A DNA stretch of 64,000 nt, taken from positions 649 through 64,648 of the forward strand of contig CAMDSH010000019.1 of NCBI GenBank assembly GCA_945907045.1, in the 5' to 3' direction. This document shows positions 1-23,123 of this stretch, in pieces. This DNA is from Rhizobium sp. Q54 (GTDB lineage: Bacteria > Pseudomonadota > Alphaproteobacteria > Rhizobiales > Xanthobacteraceae). Position numbers and translations under genes: made by a program. Numbering within the stretch: position 1 is the first letter of the stretch; each line of letters begins with the position of its first letter. The notes beneath the pieces are model-generated. The model was not told the DNA's origin and searched no databases. It was given only the letters and a program-made list of their open reading frames with translations.

Positions 1-320
1 TCTTGCGCGTTGAGCGCGAGGCGCTCGACCAGCACATATTGCGATACCAGCTGCTGGACGTGATTGCGGATTTCCTCTTCGGGGAGTTTTTCCAGCGCGG
101 AAAGATTGATTTCCTCGATCAACCGGCGGTGCAAACGCACCTTGGCGTCGAGCAACTTGTCGCTGAGCAGCGGATTGGAAGCCTGCTGCGCGGGCGCGGA
201 GGGCTCCGCCGGCGATTCCGGGAACACCGTCCACGACACGCCTTCGAGCGCCGAGGGCGACGGTTCCTCGATCACCGGATCGGGCGCAGCAATTCGTTTT
301 GCGGTGAAACGGCCGGCCAT
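1..320 (-). CDS. cpaF: Tad/Flp pilus ATPase CpaF/TadA, N-terminal fragment (gene continues beyond window start)
   Basis: Reverse-strand ATG at 318-320 opens MAGRFTAKRIAAPDPVIEE...LLDAKVRLHRRLIEEINLSALEKLPEEEIRNHVQQLVSQYVLVERLALNAQ, the helical N-terminus typical of CpaF. It lies 40 nt after the cpaE stop. It is absent from the ORF track because it has no in-window stop. Confidence 0.8.
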   Translation of the reverse strand, partial: MAGRFTAKRIAAPDPVIEEPSPSALEGVSWTVFPESPAEPSAPAQQASNPLLSDKLLDAKVRLHRRLIEEINLSALEKLPEEEIRNHVQQLVSQYVLVERLALNAQ

Positions 321-360
321 TTTTTTATCTCAAGTCCTTGTTGTCCGGCGTTTGCCCGCG

Positions 361-1581
361 TCAGCGCGCGAGCGAGAATTTGAGTTTTTTGAGGATCTGC
401 GTTGCCTGCGGAGCGGCCACTTTGGCGGCCACCTGCGGGAGTACCAGCTTCTTGAGCTGCTGCGTGATCTTGTTGCCGGGCTTGACCTCGTCGAGCGGAA
501 CGCCGCGGTCGATCGCCTCACGCACAAGATTGTAGTGGTTCGGAATATCGGCGGCGAAAGAATCGCCGAGCGTCTGCTGCAAATCGGCGCGGCGCAGACC
601 GGGCGAGAACATCTTCTGCTGGAAACGGTTGACGATGACCTGCGGCTTCGGTCCGTCAGGCATTCGTTCCTTGATCGCATTCACGAGCTGCTTGGCGTGG
701 CGCAGGCCGGGCACCGTCGTTTCGCTGACGATGAACAACTTGTTGGAGCCGAGCAGCACGCTGTCGGTCCAGGAGAACCAGGTGCGCGGCATGTCGAACA
801 CAACGTAGTCGAAATTGGTCGAAACCAGATCGAGCAGGCGCGTCACCATTTCCGGATCGAACGAGCGCATCTCAGCCGGACGATTCGGCGCGGCGATCAC
901 GGCAAGACCGGACGAATGGTGCGAGAGCATGACTTCGAGCAGCTGGCGGTCGAGCCGCTCCGGGCGGCCTTCGATTTCGCCGAGATCGAGACGCGGTTCG
1001 AGGTCGAGATAATCGGCGACCGCGCCGTGCTGGAAATCCAGATCCACAAGGCACGTCGACGCGCGCACGCGCTGGCCGCTGTTGAGCAGCAGCATCGCGG
1101 TCTGCACGGCGAGCGTGGTGACACCTGCGCCGCCGACGGCGGGCAAGAAGGTATAAATCTGCGCCTCGGTCGCTTCATTGCCGGCTTGGCCCTTGGCGAC
1201 GCGCGCGCAAGCGCGCACCAGCTCAAGCGGCGAGACCGGCTTTACCAGAAAGTCGGCAACGCGCATCTGCAACAGCATGCGCGCGACGTTTTCATCGAAC
1301 GCCTGCGTGACCACAACGACCGGCGGCCATCCGGCGCGAACCATCAGCCGCTGCAGCGCCTGCATCTCTGCATCGCCAGCGTCGAGATCGATCACGATGA
1401 CGGTCGCGCCCGCAACATCAAGCGTATCCGCTACGGAAACGAGCGTTCCGGAGACGACACGCAGATCGATCTGCGCGCCGGCGCCGAAGGTCGTGCGCGC
1501 CGATTGCTCAAAGGCAGAATCGGCGGTGAGCACCACCACGCGGGTCTTGTCGGCTGCGCTGTTGGGTCGGCTTATGCGCAT
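361..1581 (-). CDS. cpaE: Tad/Flp pilus assembly protein CpaE/TadZ (receiver-like N-domain + ParA/MinD-like domain)
   Basis: 406-aa ORF. N-terminal receiver-like fold (VVVLTAD...VIVIDLD...FLVKP) followed by a MinD-like domain with an atypical P-loop (AVGGAGVTTLAVQTA). Sits between the secretin/lipoprotein genes and cpaF. Confidence 0.88.
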   Translation of the reverse strand: MRISRPNSAADKTRVVVLTADSAFEQSARTTFGAGAQIDLRVVSGTLVSVADTLDVAGATVIVIDLDAGDAEMQALQRLMVRAGWPPVVVVTQAFDENVARMLLQMRVADFLVKPVSPLELVRACARVAKGQAGNEATEAQIYTFLPAVGGAGVTTLAVQTAMLLLNSGQRVRASTCLVDLDFQHGAVADYLDLEPRLDLGEIEGRPERLDRQLLEVMLSHHSSGLAVIAAPNRPAEMRSFDPEMVTRLLDLVSTNFDYVVFDMPRTWFSWTDSVLLGSNKLFIVSETTVPGLRHAKQLVNAIKERMPDGPKPQVIVNRFQQKMFSPGLRRADLQQTLGDSFAADIPNHYNLVREAIDRGVPLDEVKPGNKITQQLKKLVLPQVAAKVAAPQATQILKKLKFSLAR

Positions 1582-1593
1582 CGGTTCAACTCG

Positions 1594-1971
1594 TTACTTG
1601 ACCGCCGGCAGCGGCGGGCTGTTTGAAGTCGTGGGCGCCGAGTTCGAGGCCGCGTTGGCGCTCTGCTGCGCCTGCTGATAAGCGGTTGAACTGGTCGTTG
1701 CGTTGGTCGGCGGGATCACGCGATTGGTGCGATAGCGCTCCACCGCCGTCTGCATCTTGGCGCCGTTCGAGACGATGTCGCGGTTGGCGCTGTCCTTCGG
1801 CCACGGATCGACCATCTGCGTGACATCGTTTGATGCGCGTGCATCGCCGGTGGTCAGCCCAATCATGTCGCGGCGGTCGTAATAGATGTCCGAGCATCCG
1901 CCGAGCAGCACGCCGAGCGCGAGCGCCGGAGCGATCACGCGCAGCGCTAATGCATTACTGGACTTCGGCAT
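1594..1971 (-). CDS. small Tad-locus lipoprotein (CpaD position), function unknown
   Basis: 125-aa ORF with signal peptide plus lipobox (LLGGC|S) and a Ser/Thr/Ala/Asn-rich tail. Its start overlaps the cpaC stop by 17 nt. Much shorter than classical CpaD. Confidence 0.7.
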   Translation of the reverse strand: MPKSSNALALRVIAPALALGVLLGGCSDIYYDRRDMIGLTTGDARASNDVTQMVDPWPKDSANRDIVSNGAKMQTAVERYRTNRVIPPTNATTSSTAYQQAQQSANAASNSAPTTSNSPPLPAVK

Positions 1972-4931: not shown

Positions 4932-5591
4932 ATGTCGAAACCTCGTATTAGCTATGTCGATCCGGCGAACGTGAAGGACGCCAAGATGCGCGCCGAATTC
5001 GAGCGTTGCGCGCGCGAAGGCACCCCGCGGCCGGAAAGCCAGGCCGTGCGCGCGCATGTGCCGGCGACCTTCTGGTCGTTCGCAAACACATGGCACGACG
5101 TGTTTCACACCGGCGTCGCCGATCACAACATCAAGGAGCTGTGCCGCATCTACGTCTCGCGTTCCGTGCTCTGCGAGTTCTGCGGCAACCAGCGTTCGAT
5201 GAAATCGGCCAAGGCCGGATTGATCGAGGAAGACTATCGCGACCTGATCAACTTCGAGTCTTCGACGCGCTACAACGAAAAGCAGAAAGCGGCGCTCTCT
5301 TACGCCGAAGCGATCACCTGGGACCTGCCGACCGACGATGCGTTCTGGGCGCGGCTGCACAAGAATTTCAACGAGCCGGAACTGGTTGAGATCGGCTATT
5401 TCATCGCCATCACAATGGGCCAGCAGCGCTGGCTGCGCACGCTTAACATCGAGCATCACCAGATTCTGGCGGGCAGCGACGGCTCGATGGCGCCCGGCTT
5501 CAAGACCGAAGAAGAACTCAAGCAATCCAAGCAGGCCGCCGACTACTGGGCGAAGGTCGCGCCGAAACCTTCCTCGCAGGCCGCGGAGTGA
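4932..5591 (+). CDS. carboxymuconolactone decarboxylase (CMD)/AhpD-like family protein
   Basis: ORF 4887-5591. The ATG at 4932 has a GGGAGAAAG Shine-Dalgarno. Has the CxxC motif (CEFCGNQ) and helical repeats typical of the AhpD/CMD fold. Confidence 0.75.
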   Translation: MSKPRISYVDPANVKDAKMRAEFERCAREGTPRPESQAVRAHVPATFWSFANTWHDVFHTGVADHNIKELCRIYVSRSVLCEFCGNQRSMKSAKAGLIEEDYRDLINFESSTRYNEKQKAALSYAEAITWDLPTDDAFWARLHKNFNEPELVEIGYFIAITMGQQRWLRTLNIEHHQILAGSDGSMAPGFKTEEELKQSKQAADYWAKVAPKPSSQAAE

Positions 5592-6436
5592 GCGGCGAAC
5601 GAACGGCAGTCATGACCAAGCACGAACGGCCAGCCGGCGGCGCGCCGGTGTCGAAAGACTCCGCGCGCATTCGCGTCAACGGCCTCGGCAAGCATTACGG
5701 GACGCTTGAGGTTTTCCGCAACGTCAGCTTCGACGTCGGCGAGCGCGAGATCGTCGCCATCGTCGGCCCGTCCGGCTGCGGCAAGACCACTTTGCTGCGT
5801 TGTATCGACGGATTGCTGCCGGTCGATGAGGGCGAAATCTGGTTCGACCAGCAGCGCGTCACCAGTCCGCTCCCCGGCGTCGCAATGGTGTTCCAGCACT
5901 TCGGCCTGTTTCCGTGGAAGACGGTGTACGACAACGTCGCTTATGGTTTGCGCATGGCGGGCGCGCCGCAGGCGGAGATCGACAAGCGCGTGCCGGAATT
6001 CGTCAAGCTCGTCGGACTCGCCGGTTTCGAGAAGGCTTACCCTTATCAAATTTCCGGCGGCATGCAGCAGCGCTGCGGACTGGCGCGTGCGCTCGCGGTC
6101 GAACCAAGCGTGCTGCTGATGGACGAGCCGTTCGCCGCGGTGGACGCGCAGACGCGCGAGATTTTGCAATTCGAGTTGCTGCGGATCTGGGAACAGCGCC
6201 CGACCGCGATGATTTTCGTCACGCATTCGATCGAGGAGGCGGTGCTGCTCGGCCACCGCGTCATCGTGCTGAAAGGACGGCCGAGCGGAATCTACGAGAC
6301 CATCAAGATCGAGTTGCCACACCCGCGCACCCGCGCGACGCTGCGCGAGCCGCGTTTCGCCGAATTGCGCGAAAGGGTGTGGGGCACGTTGATGGCCGAA
6401 GCACAAAAAGCTGAGTTTGAACTCGAGAAGCCGTGA
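5588..6436 (+). CDS. ABC transporter ATP-binding protein, NitT/TauT (nitrate/sulfonate/bicarbonate-type) family
   Basis: Walker A GPSGCGKTT, signature ISGGMQQR, Walker B LLLMDEPF. The GTG at 5588 overlaps the upstream stop. An alternative ATG lies at 5612. Confidence 0.9.
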   Translation: MSGERTAVMTKHERPAGGAPVSKDSARIRVNGLGKHYGTLEVFRNVSFDVGEREIVAIVGPSGCGKTTLLRCIDGLLPVDEGEIWFDQQRVTSPLPGVAMVFQHFGLFPWKTVYDNVAYGLRMAGAPQAEIDKRVPEFVKLVGLAGFEKAYPYQISGGMQQRCGLARALAVEPSVLLMDEPFAAVDAQTREILQFELLRIWEQRPTAMIFVTHSIEEAVLLGHRVIVLKGRPSGIYETIKIELPHPRTRATLREPRFAELRERVWGTLMAEAQKAEFELEKP

Positions 6437-6476
6437 TGGCGCCCCGCCAATCACGGCCGGACCTATGGAGGAGAAC

Positions 6477-7478
6477 ATGATGCGTAAATTCACGATTGCG
6501 GGCGCAGGCCTCGCAATGCTGTGCGCGGCGCTGGCAAGCCCCGCCATGGCGCAAGACAAGAAAGTCGTCATCGGAATGCCGGGCATTCCGCCGGTCTTCA
6601 CCACCGTGCAGCCTTACGTGGCGGAGAAGGAAGGCTTGTTCAAGAAATACGGCGCCAACGTCGAGTTGCGGCAATTCGACAACGGCACGGCGGCGGCGCG
6701 CGCGGTGATCGCCGGCGAAATCGACATGTCGATGTCGCCAACGCCCCCGGTCGTCAATCAGGTGTCCAACTCGGGCGCCGATATCGTGGCGATCTACGGC
6801 TGGCCCAACCCCGATTGGGTTCTCGCTTCAATCGAACCCGGCAAGACCTGCAAGGATATCGTCGGACAGGGCGTCGGCGTCGACTCAATCGGCGGCGCGC
6901 GTTCGGTCGCGCTGCGCTCGATGCTGGCGGGATGCCCCGGCGTTAAAATCGAAGACTTGCAACAGGTCGCGCTCGGCTCGCAGCCGGGCACCGCGATGCT
7001 TGCCGGCCGGCTCACTTACGGCGTGCTGCATCTCGACGATCTCGCGATGATCGAGATGCAGGGCAAGAAGCTGCATCTCATGCTGGAGATGAAGAAGACC
7101 AACCCGACCAGCCACTATCTGTCGCTGATGGTTCGCGGCGATAAATTGAAGGAAAACCGCGACGCCTATGTTCGCACTCTCGCCGCCATGATCGAAGCGG
7201 CGCGCTTCATCGCGGATGCCAAGAACGCCGACAAGGTTGCCGCGGCGGCAGCGCCGACCAGCCATTCGCCGGCCATCGCCAAGGCTGCGCTGAAGGAGTT
7301 CCTCGCCATCGACTTCTGGCCCGCGAATGAAGACGGCCTCGACCGCAAGAAAATCGAAGCCGTCATCGAACTGATGAAAAAGGTCGGCGGCATCCAGCCC
7401 GGCAAGGAAGCCGTCGCGTACGACAAGCTGGTCGATCCCAGCGTCTGGAAAGACGCCAACGCGATGGTCAAGAAGTAA
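6477..7478 (+). CDS. ABC transporter substrate-binding protein (NMT1/THI5-like), paralog 1
   Basis: ATG at 6477 preceded by GGAGGAG. Signal peptide MMRKFTIAGAGLAMLCAALASPAMA. About 60% identical by eye to the ORF at 9105-10121. Confidence 0.88.
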   Translation: MMRKFTIAGAGLAMLCAALASPAMAQDKKVVIGMPGIPPVFTTVQPYVAEKEGLFKKYGANVELRQFDNGTAAARAVIAGEIDMSMSPTPPVVNQVSNSGADIVAIYGWPNPDWVLASIEPGKTCKDIVGQGVGVDSIGGARSVALRSMLAGCPGVKIEDLQQVALGSQPGTAMLAGRLTYGVLHLDDLAMIEMQGKKLHLMLEMKKTNPTSHYLSLMVRGDKLKENRDAYVRTLAAMIEAARFIADAKNADKVAAAAAPTSHSPAIAKAALKEFLAIDFWPANEDGLDRKKIEAVIELMKKVGGIQPGKEAVAYDKLVDPSVWKDANAMVKK

Positions 7479-15100: not shown

Positions 15101-15138
15101 AAACTGGAAAGCAAAAGGGGCGGCCCGAAGGCCGCCCC
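15101..15138 (-). terminator. Rho-independent terminator downstream of the 35-aa micro-ORF
   Basis: On the minus strand: GGGGCGGCC-TTCG-GGCCGCCCC (9-bp GC stem, tetraloop) followed by TTTTGCTTTCCAGTTTTC. Confidence 0.75.
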
Positions 15139-15178: not shown

Positions 15179-15286
15179 TTAGTAATAGCGGACCTGTTCG
15201 CCGGACTGGCCCGGCTGCATGACGATTGCCGCCACGCTCAGGACCACGGCAGCGGCCATGACGATGGTGAAAAGCGAGATCCACAT
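15179..15286 (-). CDS. 35-aa hydrophobic micro-protein (single predicted TM helix)
   Basis: ATG at 15284-15286, 6 nt after a GGAGGAGG Shine-Dalgarno. Encodes MWISLFTIVMAAAVVLSVAAIVMQPGQSGEQVRYY. 30 of 35 codons end in G/C. Has its own terminator 40 nt downstream. Below the ORF-track length cutoff. Confidence 0.6.
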   Translation of the reverse strand: MWISLFTIVMAAAVVLSVAAIVMQPGQSGEQVRYY

Positions 15287-15388
15287 GACGAACCTCCTCC
15301 TCTTAGTGTTTTTGGCCCCAGGCGGGGCTTCTGCGGGAATAAACGCGCAAGGGTGCGCGCGGGTTCCCGGCTTTCAGGCGACGCTAAG

Positions 15389-16186
15389 CTATTGATTATG
15401 CAATGAGGATTTCAGGTTCGTGAGCATGATACGCAGTTCCAGCTCGCGGAACTCGACGAATATGCGCCGCACCCAGCGCTGCATCTCCATGTGGATGTCG
15501 AGCGGCATGTCCATCATCGAGGTGGAGTTGGAATCGGAAAACGAGAACGGCCGCTTGTCGATGTATCGCTTCATTCCCGGCGCCAGCACCGAAAGATAAA
15601 TGGGCACCGAAGCGCCGCCGATGGGCGGAAACATGTCGCGATGCTGCACCTTGCCCGCCGCCTCGTTGTGCACAGGCACGATCGTTGTGCGATCGAAATG
15701 CCGCTGCAGTTTTGCGTAGGCATCCATCGCGGAACGGTCCGGCGAGGTTACAAACAAAATGGCCGGCGCGATCGAGCGCCGTTGCGCCTCGCCGACGAAA
15801 TCGATCTCACGCGCCACTTCAAAAAATGTCTCGAACGCATTGGGGCCGAGATCGATCACCTTCGATACGCCGTCACTGGCGATCAGCCGGTCGAACAGCG
15901 CCATCTTGCCTTTGATGTTGTCTATCTTCGCCGCCACGGCATAGCCGGGCAGGAATTGCGTCAGATCCGGATCGGGATTGAGGTCGAACGCCGCCACTTC
16001 GCGGCCGTTGGTGAGATAAAAATCTGTCAGCAGACGTGCCACCAGCGTCCTGCCGACGCGCGGACGCGGCGAGCAAACGACGGTCACGGAAGTGGCGGCG
16101 GTAGCGGGCCTCATGGCATGGCGGCTTTGGATCGGAACCGTTCGATCCGGCATCGGGTTGTCGGACGCGAGCCTAGCATTGCTCAA
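15389..16186 (-). CDS. ParA/MinD-like protein with degenerate Walker A (putative pseudo-ATPase paralog)
   Basis: 265-aa ORF (TTG at 16186; in-frame ATGs at 16153 and 16114 are alternative starts). Collinear with the upstream ParA-like protein, but its P-loop reads CSPRPRVGRT instead of GADKGGVGKT. The Walker-B-like VIDLG is kept. Confidence 0.7.
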   Translation of the reverse strand: MSNARLASDNPMPDRTVPIQSRHAMRPATAATSVTVVCSPRPRVGRTLVARLLTDFYLTNGREVAAFDLNPDPDLTQFLPGYAVAAKIDNIKGKMALFDRLIASDGVSKVIDLGPNAFETFFEVAREIDFVGEAQRRSIAPAILFVTSPDRSAMDAYAKLQRHFDRTTIVPVHNEAAGKVQHRDMFPPIGGASVPIYLSVLAPGMKRYIDKRPFSFSDSNSTSMMDMPLDIHMEMQRWVRRIFVEFRELELRIMLTNLKSSLHNQ

Positions 16187-16215
16187 GCCGCCGTTGCCTG
16201 GAGAATGGCCGCGCC

Positions 16216-16974
16216 CTAGCCGGCGACTTGACGGACGTTGCCTTCGGTCTTCGCGGCAACAAGCTCCGGCAGTTTCACCCGATCGAACTCGCCCCAGACA
16301 TTGCCGAGCCAGTGGCGGACGTAACCGCGCAGCACGAATGAATAGTTGGCGGCATCGCCCTTGCTGTTCTTGTTGGCGACGAAGGTAACGAACGGCACGG
16401 ACGCGACCTCAACCTGCTCGCACGCCATTTCGTCGAGCTTGGGGATGGTGATCTCGTGCGCGCCTTTGATCTTGTTGAAGTAGGCGTCGTAGGTCGCCGG
16501 GTCCCAATCGAAGAACGTGGTGTTGTTGATGAAGTTCTTCACCAGGAAATAATTCGCGTCGCCGACGAACTGCGCGGTCTCGGCGATTTCGTCGAGCGAA
16601 GCGATCGACGGCCCGAGAATGTGGAAGACCGAGAAGATGATCTGGCCTTTTTTCGCCGAATCCAGAAATCCGATGTCGCGCAACGCGGCAAGTGTCGGAG
16701 ACAACAGACCGGCGCGAATGTCGATCACCGTCACCTTCGCCTCGGCGCTGCCGAGCGTGTCGAAGATTTTCATCTGATCGGGAACGGTGGTGACGTCCAC
16801 GACCTCGGTGATGTCGGGATGGAACCGCTTGAGCGTTCCACGCGGAGATTCCGTGTCGAAGGCGCGGGTCGGAATGTTATGGGCGGTGAAATAGTCGAGC
16901 AGCGTGCGCGCGACCGTCGTCTTACCGACGCCGCCCTTGTCGGCGCCCACCAAAATCACTGCTGGCTTAGCCAT
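16216..16974 (-). CDS. ParA/MinD-family P-loop ATPase (orphan, small)
   Basis: 252 aa. Deviant Walker A ILVGADKGGVGKTTVARTL and a Walker B-like VTVIDIRAG. No ParB or Min partner nearby. Confidence 0.85.
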   Translation of the reverse strand: MAKPAVILVGADKGGVGKTTVARTLLDYFTAHNIPTRAFDTESPRGTLKRFHPDITEVVDVTTVPDQMKIFDTLGSAEAKVTVIDIRAGLLSPTLAALRDIGFLDSAKKGQIIFSVFHILGPSIASLDEIAETAQFVGDANYFLVKNFINNTTFFDWDPATYDAYFNKIKGAHEITIPKLDEMACEQVEVASVPFVTFVANKNSKGDAANYSFVLRGYVRHWLGNVWGEFDRVKLPELVAAKTEGNVRQVAG

Positions 16975-17323
16975 CGACTAACCCTTGAACGCAACACGGA
17001 ATACTTCTGCGGTACTGCGATACGTTATAAGCATGGCACAATAAGATGCAATGGACCTTCGTCCTATCGTAGCACGCTTTGCCCGCGCCTATCTTGTTGT
17101 TATGTCCCTATAAATAGCGCCCTACCGGCATTTCCAGCGGAAAAGTCCTCTCCTCGCCGGACCATCGGCGCAGCGCTTTTAAGGGCCAAAACCGGACGAA
17201 CCGGACGCCGATACCGGCCCGGCCGGAGCCCTCGCCAGGCTATCTACGGTGAAAAAATGGAGTAGAGCGCGAAGTCTGCGATGCGCTGCGCGCAATGCTG
17301 GAATTCGGTACTCAAGGGAGAAA

Positions 17324-17399
17324 TGGTGCCGCAAGAGGGATTCGAACCCCCGACCCCGTCATTACGAATGACGTGCTCTACCGACTGAGCTATTGCGGC
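17324..17399 (-). tRNA. tRNA-Thr (anticodon CGU)
   Basis: The reverse complement GCCGCAATAGCTCAGTCGGTAGAGCACGTCATTCGTAATGACGGGGTCGGGGGTTCGAATCCCTCTTGCGGCACCA folds as a cloverleaf. Anticodon loop TTCGTAA. Encoded CCA end. Confidence 0.95.
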
Positions 17400-19029: not shown

Positions 19030-20259
19030 TCATTTACCCAATGCGCCGAAAGTGTCGGTGACGATTTTGCGGCTGGCGTCGAGCGCCGCGTTGCGCGCCT
19101 CGATCTTGGCGATCCAGCCGTCCGCCAGTCCGCGCAAGGGAGCGGGCAGCTTGTTCAACTCGGTCAGCGCGCCGGAAATGTCGGTTTGCGCGGCTTTGAC
19201 TTCGATGCGCGCGACCACCGCCGCGGGTTCATTGCCGGGCGCCTCGCCGGCGGGGCGCACGCGCACCAGCCGGCCGGCGCTCGCCTGCAGGCGGTCGAGG
19301 AAACCGGATTCGCGCGGGGCGTTGACGCCGGACGCTTTGAGCAACACGGGAACCAGCGCCGACAATTCGCGCGCCAGCACCGCTTCACTCGGAACGCCGG
19401 AAGCCGCGAACCGCTCCAGCGGCGCCAGCAAATTGACCTCGCCGCCGAGCGATTTGATTGTGGCAAATTCAGTAGCGAATGGCTCGCCGCGAATGACCGC
19501 GCCACGCAGCGCAGCGGTGGCGAGCGCGAGACGCCCTGCCGTGTCCGGCGCGCCGGCGTTCTTGGTGGCGGTCTCCAGCGCGGCGATGCGATTTGCCAGC
19601 GTGTCGAGATCGGCTACCGCCTTGGAAGCTGCCGCGACGTTGGATTTTGTTTCGGCGGCATTCGCCGCCACTTCATCGCCGCGCCGGTTCAGCGCCGTGA
19701 GCGCAATGCCGAGCGATTGCATCGCGGTCTCCACTACGCCGAGACGTTCGGCGAGCGCCGGATCGTTCGCCGCCGAACGCGGAGCGGCGGCGGATTGCTC
19801 GAGCTTGGCGAGACGCTGCGAAAGTTCGTCGAGCTTTTTGGCGTCGATGGTGGCCGGGTGAACCTGAAGATCGCGCAGTTGCATCTCGAGCACTGCGACG
19901 CGCGCGCGCATCGCAGTGGTGCCGGCGTAGCGGATCGGCACCATGCCGGTGAGCCACAGCATGAACAGCACCGCCGAAACGAAAATGCCGCCGGCCAAAC
20001 CGGCCGCGACATAAGGCCAGGTGTGGGTGCCACGCAGCCAGAACCACGCCTTCTGGCCGAGGCCATTATCTTCCGGCTTTGGCGGAACCGGTCCCCGCGC
20101 GCTGGGCTGTTCGCGGGCGGCCTGCGGCGATTCCTGAGCGGGCTTTTGCGGCGCCGCGCCGATTTCGGTCGCGGTCACATCTATGGTCGTCGCGGGACGG
20201 CGGCGGCGCGCGCCCGCTGTCCCTGCCGTTTCCGATGATGTGCGTTTTCCGCTGGCCAT
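19030..20259 (-). CDS. MIC60/mitofilin-like inner-membrane protein (often mis-annotated HemX)
   Basis: 409 aa. Basic, disordered N-terminus, one TM helix (WPYVAAGLAGGIFVSAVLFMLWL), a long coiled-coil, and a C-terminal mitofilin-like block (VARIEVKAAQTDISGALTELNKLPAPLRGLADGWIAKIEARNAALDA). Sits between hemD and hemY. Confidence 0.8.
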   Translation of the reverse strand: MASGKRTSSETAGTAGARRRRPATTIDVTATEIGAAPQKPAQESPQAAREQPSARGPVPPKPEDNGLGQKAWFWLRGTHTWPYVAAGLAGGIFVSAVLFMLWLTGMVPIRYAGTTAMRARVAVLEMQLRDLQVHPATIDAKKLDELSQRLAKLEQSAAAPRSAANDPALAERLGVVETAMQSLGIALTALNRRGDEVAANAAETKSNVAAASKAVADLDTLANRIAALETATKNAGAPDTAGRLALATAALRGAVIRGEPFATEFATIKSLGGEVNLLAPLERFAASGVPSEAVLARELSALVPVLLKASGVNAPRESGFLDRLQASAGRLVRVRPAGEAPGNEPAAVVARIEVKAAQTDISGALTELNKLPAPLRGLADGWIAKIEARNAALDASRKIVTDTFGALGK

Positions 20260-20334: not shown

Positions 20335-21054
20335 TTATCCTTGCGGCAAAGCTAAACACCCGATCAACGCGGCTTCATCGGGGCGCGGCGCGATGGATAT
20401 TTTGCCCGCCCCCGCTTGTCTGAGCGGTTCCGCGACCTGCTTTGACAGACAATGATGATGCAGCGCCAGCGCCGGGGCGGCAACTCCGGTTTCACCGGCG
20501 CCTTTAAGGTACAACTCGGCGCTGCGGCGGGAAAAATGCAGAACCGCGTCAAGCGCGCCGGATTTAAGCGCCTGCGATAGCGCCTGCGGAAAGGGAACCG
20601 CGGCGGCGCGATAAATCACGGCGGTGGTCACGGCAATTCCGCGCGCGTCCAGTTCGCCGGGCAAATCACCCGCGCGGTCTTGCGCTGCGAGATAGAGCAG
20701 TGGCGCGCTCGCGGCGCGCGCCGAGACGATGCGCGCAAGATCTTTTGCATCGCCATCGGCGGACGTGACATCGGAGAACCCGGCTTCGCTTGCCGCGTCC
20801 GCGCTGTGACGGCCAACCGCATAGACGGACAATTTTTTTAGTTCATCGCGCCGTGCGTGTCCGGCGATGGCGCGCGCCGCGTTGGCGCTGGTGATCAAAA
20901 TTGCCGCGAATGGACCTTTGCCGAAATCGGCGGCGATGGTTTCGATGCGCGTCAGCGGCGCCAGCAGCACGTCGTGTCCAAGCGCGCGCAACGTCTTGGC
21001 GGTGCGCGTCCCATCGGGCAGTGGGCGTGTGACGAGAATGCGCAAGCCATTCAC
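20335..21054 (-). CDS. hemD: uroporphyrinogen-III synthase
   Basis: 239 aa, HEM4-type sequence (LRILVTRPLPDG..T...L...GH.VLLAPL). The GTG start overlaps the hemC stop (GTGA). Confidence 0.85.
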   Translation of the reverse strand: MNGLRILVTRPLPDGTRTAKTLRALGHDVLLAPLTRIETIAADFGKGPFAAILITSANAARAIAGHARRDELKKLSVYAVGRHSADAASEAGFSDVTSADGDAKDLARIVSARAASAPLLYLAAQDRAGDLPGELDARGIAVTTAVIYRAAAVPFPQALSQALKSGALDAVLHFSRRSAELYLKGAGETGVAAPALALHHHCLSKQVAEPLRQAGAGKISIAPRPDEAALIGCLALPQG

Positions 21055-21968
21055 CTGAAAAAATCCGGACCCGCGCGCTTTTTCAGTTCGCGTCCCGCAT
21101 CGGTACCGAGCGCGATGGCATCCCTGACGTTCCCCTCACGGCTCGCGTCAAAGGCGGCGCTGCCGTCTGGCTTGGCGATAAGCCCACGGAATTTCAATTT
21201 ACCGCCGGCAATCGTCGCGTGACCGGCAATCGGCGTGCGGCATGAACCGTCAAGCACGCCGAGAAACGCGCGCTCGGCAGCCAGCGCCGTCGAAGTATCG
21301 GCGTGATCGATGGCATTGAGCAGCGCGCGGATTTTTTCGTTGTCTTCACGCACTTCAATCGCAATCGCGCCCTGCCCGGCGGCGGGAAGAAATTCTTCCA
21401 CGCTCATGATGGTGCTCGCGTGCGCAGCCAGACCCAATCGCTTGAGCCCCGCCAGCGCCAATATGGTGGCGTCCGCCGCGCCATCTGCAAGTTTACGCAG
21501 CCGCGTCTCGACATTGCCGCGCATGACGGCAATCTCGACATCCGGCCGCGCTCGTTTCACCAGCGCCTGACGGCGCGGCGACGACGTGCCGACCACCGCG
21601 CCTTTTCGCAAATCGCGAAGCGTTTTCACTGAAGCGCCGATGAACACATCTCGCGCATCCTCGCGTTCAAGACACGCCGCCAGCATCAGCCCGTTCGGGA
21701 GCAGCGTCGGCACGTCCTTGGCCGAATGCACCGCGAGGTCGATGTGACCCGCCAGCAGAGCCTCCTCGATCTCCTTGGTGAAAAGACCCTTGCCGCCTTC
21801 GTCCGCCAGCGAGCGGTCCTGCAGCGCATCGCCGGAAGTCTTGATGATTTTCAGCTCCGCCGCGACGCCATGCGCCGCGAGCAGCCGCGCGGCCACCTCC
21901 CGCGCCTGCACCAGCGCCAGCGGGCTGCCGCGCGTACCGATGCGCAGCGCGGTGGAGGATTGCGCCAT
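21051..21968 (-). CDS. hemC: hydroxymethylbilane synthase (porphobilinogen deaminase)
   Basis: Internal ATG at 21968 of the 616-aa ORF gives MAQSSTALRIGTRGSPLALVQA...KIIKTSGD...LAVHSAKDVP...GSCRTPIAGHA (305 aa). The upstream 311 codons are antisense to tsaD. Confidence 0.92.
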   Translation of the reverse strand: MAQSSTALRIGTRGSPLALVQAREVAARLLAAHGVAAELKIIKTSGDALQDRSLADEGGKGLFTKEIEEALLAGHIDLAVHSAKDVPTLLPNGLMLAACLEREDARDVFIGASVKTLRDLRKGAVVGTSSPRRQALVKRARPDVEIAVMRGNVETRLRKLADGAADATILALAGLKRLGLAAHASTIMSVEEFLPAAGQGAIAIEVREDNEKIRALLNAIDHADTSTALAAERAFLGVLDGSCRTPIAGHATIAGGKLKFRGLIAKPDGSAAFDASREGNVRDAIALGTDAGRELKKRAGPDFFR

Positions 21969-22034
21969 TGGACCTCGCAATGTTAGGCCAGTCGAAACCG
22001 GATCATAGGGACGCCGCCGGAGCGGGGAAAGCGA

Positions 22035-23123
22035 ATGGTTGTACTCGGGATCGAGACGACCTGCGACGAGACCGCGGCGGCGCTCGTCGAGCGTCAGGGC
22101 GACGGACGCGGCAAGATCTTGTCCAACGTCGTGCTCAGTCAGGTGAGCGAGCACGCGGCATTCGGCGGCGTGGTGCCGGAAATCGCCGCGCGCGCGCATG
22201 TGGAATCGCTCGACCGCATCATCACCAAGGCGATGACGCAGGCCGGGCGCAACTACAGTGACATCGACGGCGTCGCCGCCGCCGCCGGCCCGGGATTGAT
22301 CGGCGGCGTGATCGTCGGGCTGACCACCGCGAAAGCCATCGCGCTGGTGAATGAAAAACCGCTGATAGCGGTCAATCATCTCGAAGCGCACGCGCTCACC
22401 GCGCGGCTCACCGACGGAACTCCGTTTCCCTATTGCCTGTTCCTCGCGTCGGGCGGGCATACGCAAGTCGTCGCGGTGCGCGGCGTCGGCGATTACGTCC
22501 GGCTCGGCACGACACTCGACGACGCCATCGGCGAAGCCTTCGATAAAACCGCGAAGCTGCTCGGGCTCGGATATCCCGGCGGCCCGCAGGTGGAGAAGGA
22601 AGCCGAGAAGGGCGATCCCGCCCGCTTCACGCTGCCGCGTCCGATGTTCGGACGCAACGATGCGGATTTTTCGCTCTCGGGACTGAAAACCGCACTGCGG
22701 CTGGAGGCGGAAAAAATCGCGCCGCTGTCCGATCAGGACGTGGCTGACTTGTGCGCCTCGTTCCAGCAGGCCGTCGTCGACGTGGTGCTCGATCGCCTGC
22801 GCGCGGGTTTGCGCGCGTTCCGCACGCGATACGGCTCGCCCACGGCGCTGGTCGCCGCCGGCGGCGTCGCCGCCAATCAGGCAATTAGAAAAGTATTGCA
22901 TCGTCTCGCGTTCGAAGTCGGCACCGTATTGGTGGCGCCGCCGATTGAGCTGTGCACCGACAACGGCGCGATGATCGCGTGGGCGGGCGCCGAACGTCTC
23001 GCGCTGGGCCTCACCGACACGCTCGATGTCGCGCCGCGCGCGCGCTGGCCGCTCGATGAAGTCACCGGCGCGCGTGCGCCCGATCCCTATCGCAGCCTGA
23101 AGCCAAGCGCCTCGCCGTTATGA
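22035..23123 (+). CDS. tsaD: tRNA N6-adenosine threonylcarbamoyltransferase
   Basis: [18 protein letters not shown]..., HLEAH, and GGVAAN motifs of Kae1/TsaD. Divergent from hemC. Confidence 0.93.

Follow-up and report, generated by a model that had tools for sequence, protein, structure and literature searches.

We consider here two adjacent genes on the minus strand of a 64,000-nucleotide stretch of a Rhizobium sp. Q54 genome assembly (contig CAMDSH010000019.1), and we refer to this whole stretch as the window. The upstream gene, A, encodes an ATPase of the ParA/MinD superfamily. The downstream gene, B, encodes a paralog of A with a variant P-loop. The features on which the argument depends are the following (nt, nucleotides; aa, amino acids).

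16216-16974, minus strand: gene A, 252 aa from an ATG start, a ParA/MinD-superfamily (TraL/StbB-like) ATPase
16918-16947, minus strand: P-loop of A, GADKGGVGKT, residues 10-19, with the signature lysine Lys13 and the Walker lysine Lys18 (sequence reading)
16115-16215, minus strand: A-B intergenic spacer, 101 nt
15389-16114, minus strand: gene B, 241 aa from a conserved Met start, a paralog of A with a variant P-loop
16046-16072, minus strand: variant P-loop of B, SPRPRVGRT, residues 15-23; the family consensus is SPRPxVGKT

The open reading frame (ORF) of B can be read in a longest form that runs from a TTG codon at 16186 to 15389. We prefer the methionine at position 25 of that form (16114) as the start, because both the public annotation and the conserved N-terminus of the orthologs place it there. 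The two genes are probably co-transcribed, since a terminator scan of the 101-nt spacer showed no site inside it. No further member of the family was found elsewhere in the window.

A and B are paralogs along their whole length, as a first-pass annotation made from the sequence of this DNA had proposed. A pairwise BLASTP comparison sees the paralogy only across the N-terminal ~130 aa (25% identity, E = 1e-11). It takes a comparison of family profiles, built from 48 sequences for A and 53 for B, to recover the full-length homology: hhalign aligns the two families over 230 columns (99.5%, E = 1.1e-22, 18% identity), and the alignment extends to the C-terminal helix, which reads WL..VW.EFDR in A and W.R.IyxEFRE in B.

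The same annotation read a canonical deviant Walker A motif in the upstream copy and the absence of both lysines from the downstream one, and for the window both readings are correct. The deviant Walker A pattern with the signature lysine, xKGGxGK[ST], is matched by A and not by B. Across the 48 diverse members of the A family, Gly17 of the P-loop is invariant and Gly10, Ala11, Lys13, Gly14, Gly15, Val16, Lys18, and Thr19 are conserved at >=90%, with Asp12 falling outside that list. Beyond the P-loop, Asp85 is invariant and Asp40 is >=90% conserved. In the B of the window, the signature lysine and the Walker lysine are both gone, and the aspartate of the FD motif (Walker A') and that of KVIDLG (Walker B) are retained.

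Conservation of the pair and of its variant P-loop

When one genome per species was scanned, 80 loci came to light in the genera Pseudolabrys, Rhodoplanes, Afipia, Nitrobacter, Bradyrhizobium, and Rhodopseudomonas. In 78 of them B is the next gene downstream of A and on the same strand, and the other 2 end at contig edges; that is, the order A then B is kept in 78 of 78 informative loci, with a median gap of 59 nt between the genes. Intact B ORFs from 78 of the 80 scan loci, together with the one in the window, make 79 B genes in six genera.

The first-pass annotation had described an orphan module and had recommended mapping its distribution and neighborhood in relatives. That mapping bears out the description, with the pair kept in six genera and in two housekeeping contexts. 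The Pseudolabrys-like clade, to which the window belongs, has the gene order hemC, hemD, a gene for a protein of ~410-430 aa, hemY, tRNA-Thr, sometimes a cupin gene, then A and B, a major facilitator superfamily (MFS) gene, and a lyase gene. In the clade of Bradyrhizobium, Nitrobacter, Afipia, Rhodopseudomonas, and Rhodoplanes, the order is Rsm22-type methyltransferase, LemA, M48 peptidase, A, B, phosphoribosyltransferase, and TrpE(G). Because A and B are found together in two unrelated housekeeping contexts, they move as a unit. In neither context did we find mobile-element, conjugation, or phage genes beside the pair, and a search for conserved functional neighbors turned up only the clade-specific housekeeping genes. 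The comparison of loci shows A-B to be a self-contained two-gene chromosomal module that has been maintained vertically in the lineages of the six genera.

The two genes evolve at different rates. Across the six genera, the identity of A is 73-85%, which is more conserved than its neighbors hemY (56-69%) and the MFS gene (54-71%), and that of B is 38-57%. The median ratio of non-synonymous to synonymous substitution (dN/dS; Nei-Gojobori, 2667 pairs) is 0.18 for A and 0.48 for B, values which are approximate because dS is near saturation. The non-synonymous evolution of B is about 3 times faster than that of A, and B is still under purifying selection. In a large protein collection, homologs of A fall into 6258 clusters and homologs of B into 1404, and all of these clusters are named either "hypothetical" or merely generically.

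What has been conserved in B is informative. In the 53-sequence alignment there are 33 invariant residues, including Ser15, Pro16, Arg17, Gly21, Thr23, Asp44, Asp88, and Asn150. The systematic changes to the P-loop are a signature lysine replaced by arginine and a Gly-Gly replaced by Pro-x, and all else of the motif set is mostly kept. All the Xanthobacteraceae-type orthologs have the same residue at the signature position. The Walker position, on the other hand, varies, with lysine in 75 of the 79 loci and arginine in 4, the arginine being confined to the small clade of the window. The first-pass annotation had called B catalytically dead. A non-canonical P-loop under selection is indeed what we see, but the phrase is too strong for the family, in which GKT is present in 75 of 79 loci and the Mg-ligand threonine, both aspartates, and the invariant asparagine are kept.

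A more distant lineage, from a forest-soil metagenome (contig L113), extends the picture. It has an A-type gene at 213-1037 (plus strand), 65% identical to the A of the window, and a B-type gene at 1053-1763 (plus strand) that starts 15 nt past A and whose P-loop, SPHKRTGTT, has a threonine at the Walker position. With lysine in most lineages, arginine in the clade of the window, and threonine in this distant lineage, the Walker lysine of B is expendable. The P-loop of B, as we read these alignments, is a derived and selected state and not the product of decay, because the change of the signature lysine to arginine and of Gly-Gly to Pro-x is fixed, and only B's own Walker lysine varies. A different arrangement is found on another metagenomic chromosome fragment (L112), which carries two canonical A-type paralogs, both with KGGVGKT, at 5001-5846 (plus strand) and 5857-6582 (minus strand). 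They are convergent, lie beside kdsB/kdsA-type genes, and are accompanied by no B-type gene; the L112 pair is an independent duplication of the family.

Relatives among conjugation ATPases and phages

Neither A nor B scores above threshold in Pfam, NCBIfam, PHROGs, or PADLOC; A has sub-threshold P-loop matches, and B has nothing. In Pfam, the gathering thresholds of CbiA (PF01656), ParA (PF10609), and AAA_31 are not reached, the match of A to CbiA being 20.6 bits against a cutoff of 25.4 and covering only residues 8-43, and B has no Pfam match at E <= 1. The NCBIfam ParA_partition model (NF041546) gives 15.4 bits against a cutoff of 180, a PHROG "ParA-like" match is restricted to the N-terminus of A, and no PADLOC model matches A or B at E <= 1. 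The Pfam MipZ model (PF09140) has no match to A at E <= 1, with weak matches in 6 of the 48 family members, and minD_bact (TIGR01968) matches neither A nor B. We therefore assign the superfamily from fold and motifs, and not from curated models.

Comparison with known structures by sequence reaches little further. Sequence and profile searches of the Protein Data Bank (PDB) with A match ArsA, MipZ, and MinD over the first 40-60 residues only; the A profile matches MipZ chains over residues 1-61 only (E = 2e-4), and similarity to Soj is likewise limited to the first 40-60. The same searches with B give no match. AlphaFold2 predicts both proteins with confidence, A with a mean local confidence (pLDDT) of 93.6 and a predicted template-modeling score (pTM) of 0.90, B with 87.8 and 0.89. 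When the models are compared to solved structures with Foldseek, the matches between them include MipZ, Soj, MinD, FlhG, ParF, and Mrp-type HypB at probability 1.0 and template-modeling scores (TM) of 0.45-0.63. The top match of A is MipZ (TM 0.58-0.63, E = 3e-6, 13-14% identity), and the top matches of B are Mrp-type HypB (5auq), Cfd1 (6g2g), and ParF (TM ~0.53). Against the BFVD collection of viral models, Foldseek found no meaningful match. The predicted models thus show A and B to share a ParA/MinD-type (SIMIBI) nucleoside triphosphatase (NTPase) fold, as one unnamed family that is remote from the solved structures. Membership among the partition ParA proteins fails, as the ParA_partition score is far below cutoff and there is no ParB-like gene in the flanks within the window or in the Bradyrhizobium-clade context. 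Membership in MinD fails too, with no TIGR01968 match and no min genes nearby.

The nearest named relatives of A and B are, on profile comparison, shown to be the StbB/TraL/MobD conjugation-accessory ATPases, and they are distant. The A family aligns with IncP TraL over 173 columns (hhalign, 96.1%, E = 2.9e-9), and overall at 95-96% over 173-176 columns; the B family aligns with TraL at 92.5% over 167 columns. The TraL query is 100% identical to the annotated TraL of several IncP plasmid records. As a baseline, the comparison with an E. coli MinD sequence, used for this purpose only, is confined to a 39-column P-loop match. The A family also aligns, over 218 columns (99.2%, E = 8e-20), with a protein of a cyanobacterial plasmid that is annotated as "similar to mobilization protein MobD", and this protein matches the NCBIfam TraL model weakly along its length (19.9 bits). 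That model (NF010461, cutoff 360 bits) has no match to A or B at E <= 1, nor to two phage A-type homologs, L085 and L100, at E <= 0.1. A tblastn search for plasmid copies of A found no proteobacterial ones, only cyanobacterial ones at ~25% identity.

StbB-like ParA/MinD ATPases, a group in which TraL_RP4 and MobD_pTF-FC2 are placed with StbB of R388, act with the DNA-binding proteins StbA/TraK/MobC near the origin of transfer (oriT), and conjugation requires StbB (Guynet et al. 2011, PMC3098194). Their defining context is a three-gene operon of the stbABC/traKLM/mobCDE type beside oriT on a conjugative or mobilizable plasmid, and one subgroup has SGxxGK[T/S] instead of KGGxxK[T/S], functioning without the signature lysine in positioning the plasmid for conjugation (PMC3098194). 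They resemble A and B in several respects: proteins of ~240-250 aa with KGGxGK[T/S], homology that goes far past the P-loop, A being without a ParB as they are, and a subgroup lacking the signature lysine that parallels B. The differences are that A-B is chromosomal, with no traK/stbA/mobC-type gene, relaxase, type IV secretion system, or oriT context, and that A is paired with a paralog where they are paired with a DNA-binding adaptor. Because the curated score and the defining operon context are both wanting, we take A and B to be relatives and not members of this group. The first-pass annotation had found the pair unassignable to any named system, and had named MipZ and TraL-type proteins as characterized subfamilies into which it might fall. 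It was right in that no curated threshold is reached and the pair belongs to neither, and it did not see the distant StbB/TraL/MobD relatives that hhalign detects, with their remote TraL homology over 173-176 columns.

Three other known systems deserve comparison. MipZ of Caulobacter (PDB 2xj4, 2xj9) is the best structural match to A, and is likewise an alphaproteobacterial ParA-like ATPase with an ATP-dependent dimer. It differs in its 13-14% identity, in a profile match restricted to residues 1-61, in the lack of a Pfam MipZ match for A, and in having no variant paralog as partner; nor did we find any ParB or FtsZ link for A-B. Asymmetric SIMIBI dimers are known in the Nbp35-Cfd1 heterodimer, the ArsA pseudo-dimer, and SRP54-FtsY, in which a pair of homologous NTPase domains, their nucleotide sites not equivalent, makes up a single composite switch. 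The best structural matches of B include Cfd1 (6g2g) and Mrp-type HypB (5auq), although the resemblance is at the level of the fold (TM ~0.5, 12-15% identity), A and B have no Fe-S cysteine motifs and no metal or arsenite sites, and the A-B heterodimer is a proposal. Finally, VirC1 of Agrobacterium is a ParA/MinD-like protein that positions the T-DNA relaxosome (cited in PMC3098194). Here the likeness, an orphan ParA-like ATPase bringing a DNA-processing complex to a DNA-export machine, is one of functional analogy only, and VirC1 acts with VirC2 and overdrive on the Ti plasmid, nothing comparable to which is linked to A-B.

The nearest sequence relatives are single-copy genes of phages. A tblastn search of phage genomes found full-length A-type homologs in the Bradyrhizobium phages BDU-MI-1 (47% identity) and ppBeUSDA76-1 (42%), and IMG/VR holds 24 further viral contigs with an A-type homolog at 37-55% identity. 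Each of these 26 viral loci has one A-type gene with the canonical KGGVGKT, and 0 of 26 have a B-type gene. The phage gene is always in the late region, mostly beside head or packaging genes. The order TerS-TerL-[A]-portal-protease/major capsid is found in 8 viral loci, and in BDU-MI-1 the gene is directly upstream of TerL. In L092 and L114 it directly follows the major head protein, L090 and L091 having by clustering an upstream ORF of the L092 type. It precedes the head-maturation protease in L110, follows a head-morphogenesis protein in L107, lies between the portal and a Mu-F-type protein in L115, and is found among tail-fiber and lysis genes in ppBeUSDA76-1 and L095. Such a shifting location would suit an accessory head or packaging factor and, equally, a mobile late-operon gene, a "moron".

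In a rough neighbor-joining tree rooted on TraL, the chromosomal A genes, including the L112 and L113 lineages, form a slow-evolving clade inside a paraphyletic grade of phage genes, and B is a long basal branch. Because the chromosomal clade nests in the phage grade, the tree suggests capture of an A-type gene from a phage, followed by duplication. In the literature we found nothing specific on ParA-like genes in phage head modules or on orphan ParA proteins in Bradyrhizobium or Rhodopseudomonas.

The homolog in BDU-MI-1 (KY940711; L086, 4650-5681) is 343 aa long, with an N-terminal extension of ~120 aa, and is annotated as "Bll2492 protein". From the name it follows that B. diazoefficiens USDA110 would have a prophage-type paralog (bll2492) besides the core A-B pair. 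Several IMG/VR homologs have similar N-terminal extensions, and the ORF calls may overextend the start.

A proposed asymmetric dimer and its alternatives

A and B are no new kind of protein. They are NTPases of the ParA/MinD superfamily, in its TraL/StbB-like branch, and the descriptive core of our account, a conserved orphan TraL-like ATPase with a selected variant paralog, is secure. How the two might work together is a different matter. Proteins of the ParA/MinD/NifH type dimerize around ATP as a sandwich, P-loop against P-loop, with the signature lysine of one subunit touching the nucleotide of its partner. It is because of this that we infer an asymmetric dimer of A and B. According to the model that we favor, a phage A-type gene was domesticated and then duplicated, and A and B would now form an asymmetric ATP-sandwich dimer in which A gives the competent active site and B is a regulatory, hydrolysis-poor partner. 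The invariant Arg17 of B, at the signature position, would act in trans on the ATP of A across the interface. Pro18 and residue 19 of B, which stand in place of the Gly-Gly, would by their bulk disfavor a B-B sandwich, and could pack on the Gly-Gly of A. ATP binding and hydrolysis would switch the pair between cargo-recruiting or cargo-positioning states, and the cargo would most likely be DNA or a DNA-handling complex, by analogy with StbB, TraL, and VirC1 and given the TerL/portal context of the phage genes.

This model draws on the complete catalytic motifs of A, on the fixed variant P-loop of B, on the co-orientation and closeness of the pair, and on the presence of A alone in phages. An invariant "trans" residue next to a variable "cis" lysine in B is what an asymmetric dimer predicts. 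We give the whole model a probability of roughly 0.45, just short of even odds.

Several points weigh against it. The cargo step is the weakest of the model: we looked for a StbA/TraK/ParB-like DNA-binding adaptor or a cargo gene linked to A-B, and there is none in either genomic context. Most B proteins keep GKT, Thr23, Asp44, Asp88, and Asn150, so B could bind nucleotide alone, as a homodimer. The tree is a rough one in which the basal position of B may be a long-branch artefact, which makes it a poor guide to the direction and timing of the duplication, and the varied late-region positions in phages, by fitting a moron as well as an assembly factor, weaken the analogy with DNA machines. A more ambitious version would have a TraL-like ATPase of a phage late region captured by the ancestor of Bradyrhizobium, Nitrobacter, and Pseudolabrys, duplicated, and made into a core machine that would be obligately dimeric and asymmetric, a pseudo-ATPase B giving its arginine in trans to the single site of A. 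We find it doubtful. If it were true, the pair would be an undescribed positioning or regulatory system of the ParA type with its own cargo, and the phage singletons would be a new class of ParA-like accessory proteins of virion assembly or packaging.

Could the pair instead be directed against phages? Host copies of a phage late-region ATPase might block head assembly, DNA packaging, or some other late step of infecting phages, through superinfection exclusion or as decoys. The nearest relatives of A (37-55% identity) are indeed phage-borne, lying by genes for TerL, portal, major head protein, protease, tail fiber, and lysis, positions which are typical of assembly factors and morons alike; the phage grade encloses the chromosomal A clade, and there are Bradyrhizobium phages with homologs that are 42-47% identical. 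Defense genes, however, are usually patchy, island-borne, and of fast turnover, whereas this pair shows synteny and vertical inheritance from genus to genus, in housekeeping contexts and with no mobile-element genes adjacent, A is conserved at 73-85%, above hemY and the MFS gene, with a dN/dS of 0.18, and PADLOC has no match. We consider an anti-phage role unlikely. We think it improbable, too, that A and B are two independent homodimeric NTPases that have stayed adjacent since the duplication, with B active despite its unusual P-loop. The motif residues that most B orthologs retain (GKT, Thr23, Asp44, Asp88, and Asn150) would allow it, StbB of the R388 type works without a signature lysine (PMC3098194), and the canonical paralogs of L112 are convergent, an arrangement that does not call for co-regulation. 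Yet the pair stays on the same strand, A then B, at a median gap of 59 nt in 78 of 78 informative loci despite its relocation between two contexts, and phages have A alone. Moreover, B's own catalysis as an essential activity is hard to reconcile with a Walker lysine that is replaced by arginine or threonine in some lineages while the remaining protein stays conserved.

The deviant Walker A and ParA fold of A, its best structural match to MipZ (TM 0.58-0.63), and the weak Pfam MipZ matches in 6 of 48 family members would agree with a classical positioning system, of the ParA, MipZ-like, or MinD-like kind, whose ParB, FtsZ, or MinC/E partner is encoded elsewhere. We regard this as very unlikely given how widely the curated models fail (ParA_partition 15.4 of 180 bits, CbiA 20.6 of 25.4, no MipZ or MinD match for A), given that the similarity to MipZ, MinD, and Soj stops within the first 40-60 residues where that to TraL covers ~175 columns, with an identity to MipZ of 13-14%, and given that no partner gene is linked in any context. 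As for decay, the first-pass annotation had allowed that B might be a decaying duplicate, in which case it should be unconserved in relatives and show relaxed selection, and one might also suppose the pair to be the functionless remnant of an element integrated at tRNA-Thr. The B of the window has lost both P-loop lysines, B evolves ~3 times faster than A, and the pair has a slightly lower G+C content and lies 349 nt from a tRNA. But there are 79 intact B genes in six genera with 33 invariant residues and a dN/dS below 1, the G+C content at third codon positions (GC3) is native, a neighboring tRNA is peculiar to the Pseudolabrys-like clade, and no integrase or mobile-element gene is nearby. 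We give decay next to no credence, and we reject the decaying-duplicate reading of B, which is contradicted by its conservation in 78 of 80 loci and its dN/dS of 0.48.

The asymmetric-dimer model aside, the family has an interest of its own. As far as databases and the searchable literature show, three things about it are undescribed: the family as such, for which there is neither a name nor a curated model; the fixed pairing with a variant-P-loop paralog, which belongs to the core genome in a major group of soil Alphaproteobacteria; and the single-gene relatives inside phage head and packaging clusters. ParA/MinD-type ATPases organize chromosomes, plasmids, division sites, flagella, chemoreceptor arrays, and carboxysomes, and each time another orphan member was characterized, a new cargo or a new use of the ATP switch has tended to emerge. 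This one comprises thousands of sequences and is very strongly conserved in Bradyrhizobium, Rhodopseudomonas, Nitrobacter, Afipia, and Pseudolabrys, bacteria that are abundant and of agricultural or environmental importance. A canonical ATPase together with a variant-P-loop paralog makes a natural system for studying asymmetric ParA-type dimers, and R. palustris and B. diazoefficiens are genetically tractable hosts for such work. The phage relatives point to domestication of a phage gene and, with the distant link to TraL and StbB, suggest a shared and unexplored role next to DNA-export machines.

Surroundings of the pair in the window

A tRNA-Thr(CGT) gene lies at 17324-17399 on the minus strand, with its 3' end 349 nt from the start codon of A, in agreement with the ~350 nt of the first-pass annotation. 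An Rfam scan of 13-19 kb found nothing above threshold except this tRNA. Within 8 kb on either side, the genes are those for an ABC permease, an NMT1-like protein, a hydrolase, an M24 peptidase, a lyase, an MFS transporter, HemY, an unassigned 409-aa protein, HemD, and HemC. The usual partners of ParA-family proteins had been noted as missing, and so they are: there are no ParB, Min, flagellar, chemotaxis, conjugation, or phage genes within ~8 kb of the pair.

The first-pass annotation had also drawn attention to a patch of low G+C content by the tRNA. The dip is real and smaller than had been stated: 0.595 for A, 0.593 for B, and 0.553 for the spacer between the tRNA and A, against a window mean of 0.631 and 0.62-0.68 in the flanking genes. 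It recurs in relatives, the G+C content of A being lower than that of its own locus in 76 of 78 related loci. With GC3 values of 0.81 (A) and 0.76 (B), the two genes fall inside the range of their neighbors (0.68-0.85), and because GC3 is native, the dip points to amino-acid composition and not to foreign codon usage. As a sign of a recent integrative island at tRNA-Thr, the patch does not hold up. We reject such an island, as GC3 is native, no integrase or other mobile-element gene was found near the pair in the window, synteny is kept, and tRNA adjacency is specific to the Pseudolabrys-like clade, with no tRNA adjacent to the pair in the Bradyrhizobium-type clade.

Two putative transcription signals flank the pair in the window.

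17030-17051, minus strand: partial promoter-like element TTGCAT-N8-GCCATGCT, with the downstream half only and a shorter spacer; a putative promoter
15344-15361, minus strand: terminator-like hairpin followed by a T-run, 28 nt past the stop codon of B (consensus pattern match only)

The full form of the element, TTGAAT-N14-GCCATGTT, was counted when within 200 nt upstream of A; 40 of 84 loci have it, at distances of 46-163 nt, against a background of 2 matches in 1.86 Mb. Its two halves resemble what we take to be the -35/-10 pair of a sigma-32 (RpoH)-type promoter. In the Bradyrhizobium clade, genes for LemA and an M48 (HtpX-like) peptidase lie upstream of A. The hairpin at 15344-15361 is the probable end of the A-B transcription unit, as its pattern and position suggest.

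Beyond that hairpin there is a small ORF of 35 aa at 15179-15286 (minus strand), hydrophobic in sequence (MWISLFTIVMAAAVVLSVAAIVMQPGQSGEQVRYY), with a strong ribosome-binding site, AGGAGGAGG, upstream. It is flanked by the terminator-like hairpins at 15344-15361 and 15117-15138. In many loci of the Pseudolabrys clade there are weak tblastn matches to it in the same position and on the same strand, between B and the MFS gene, and it may be a gene for a small membrane peptide.

The unassigned 409-aa protein (19030-20259, minus strand) lies between hemD and the HemY-like gene and has no Pfam match at E <= 0.001; in Pseudolabrys contigs a counterpart of 428 aa holds the same place. This is presumably the position reported for the Mic60 (mitofilin)-like gene of Alphaproteobacteria. 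Further upstream, the HemC ORF (21051-22901, minus strand) is listed as 616 aa, with the Pfam domains of porphobilinogen deaminase from residue 319 on. Because HemC in Pseudolabrys is 311 aa, the true start is probably far downstream of the listed one; alternatively, the long ORF may include an unannotated N-terminal region or an overlapping gene.

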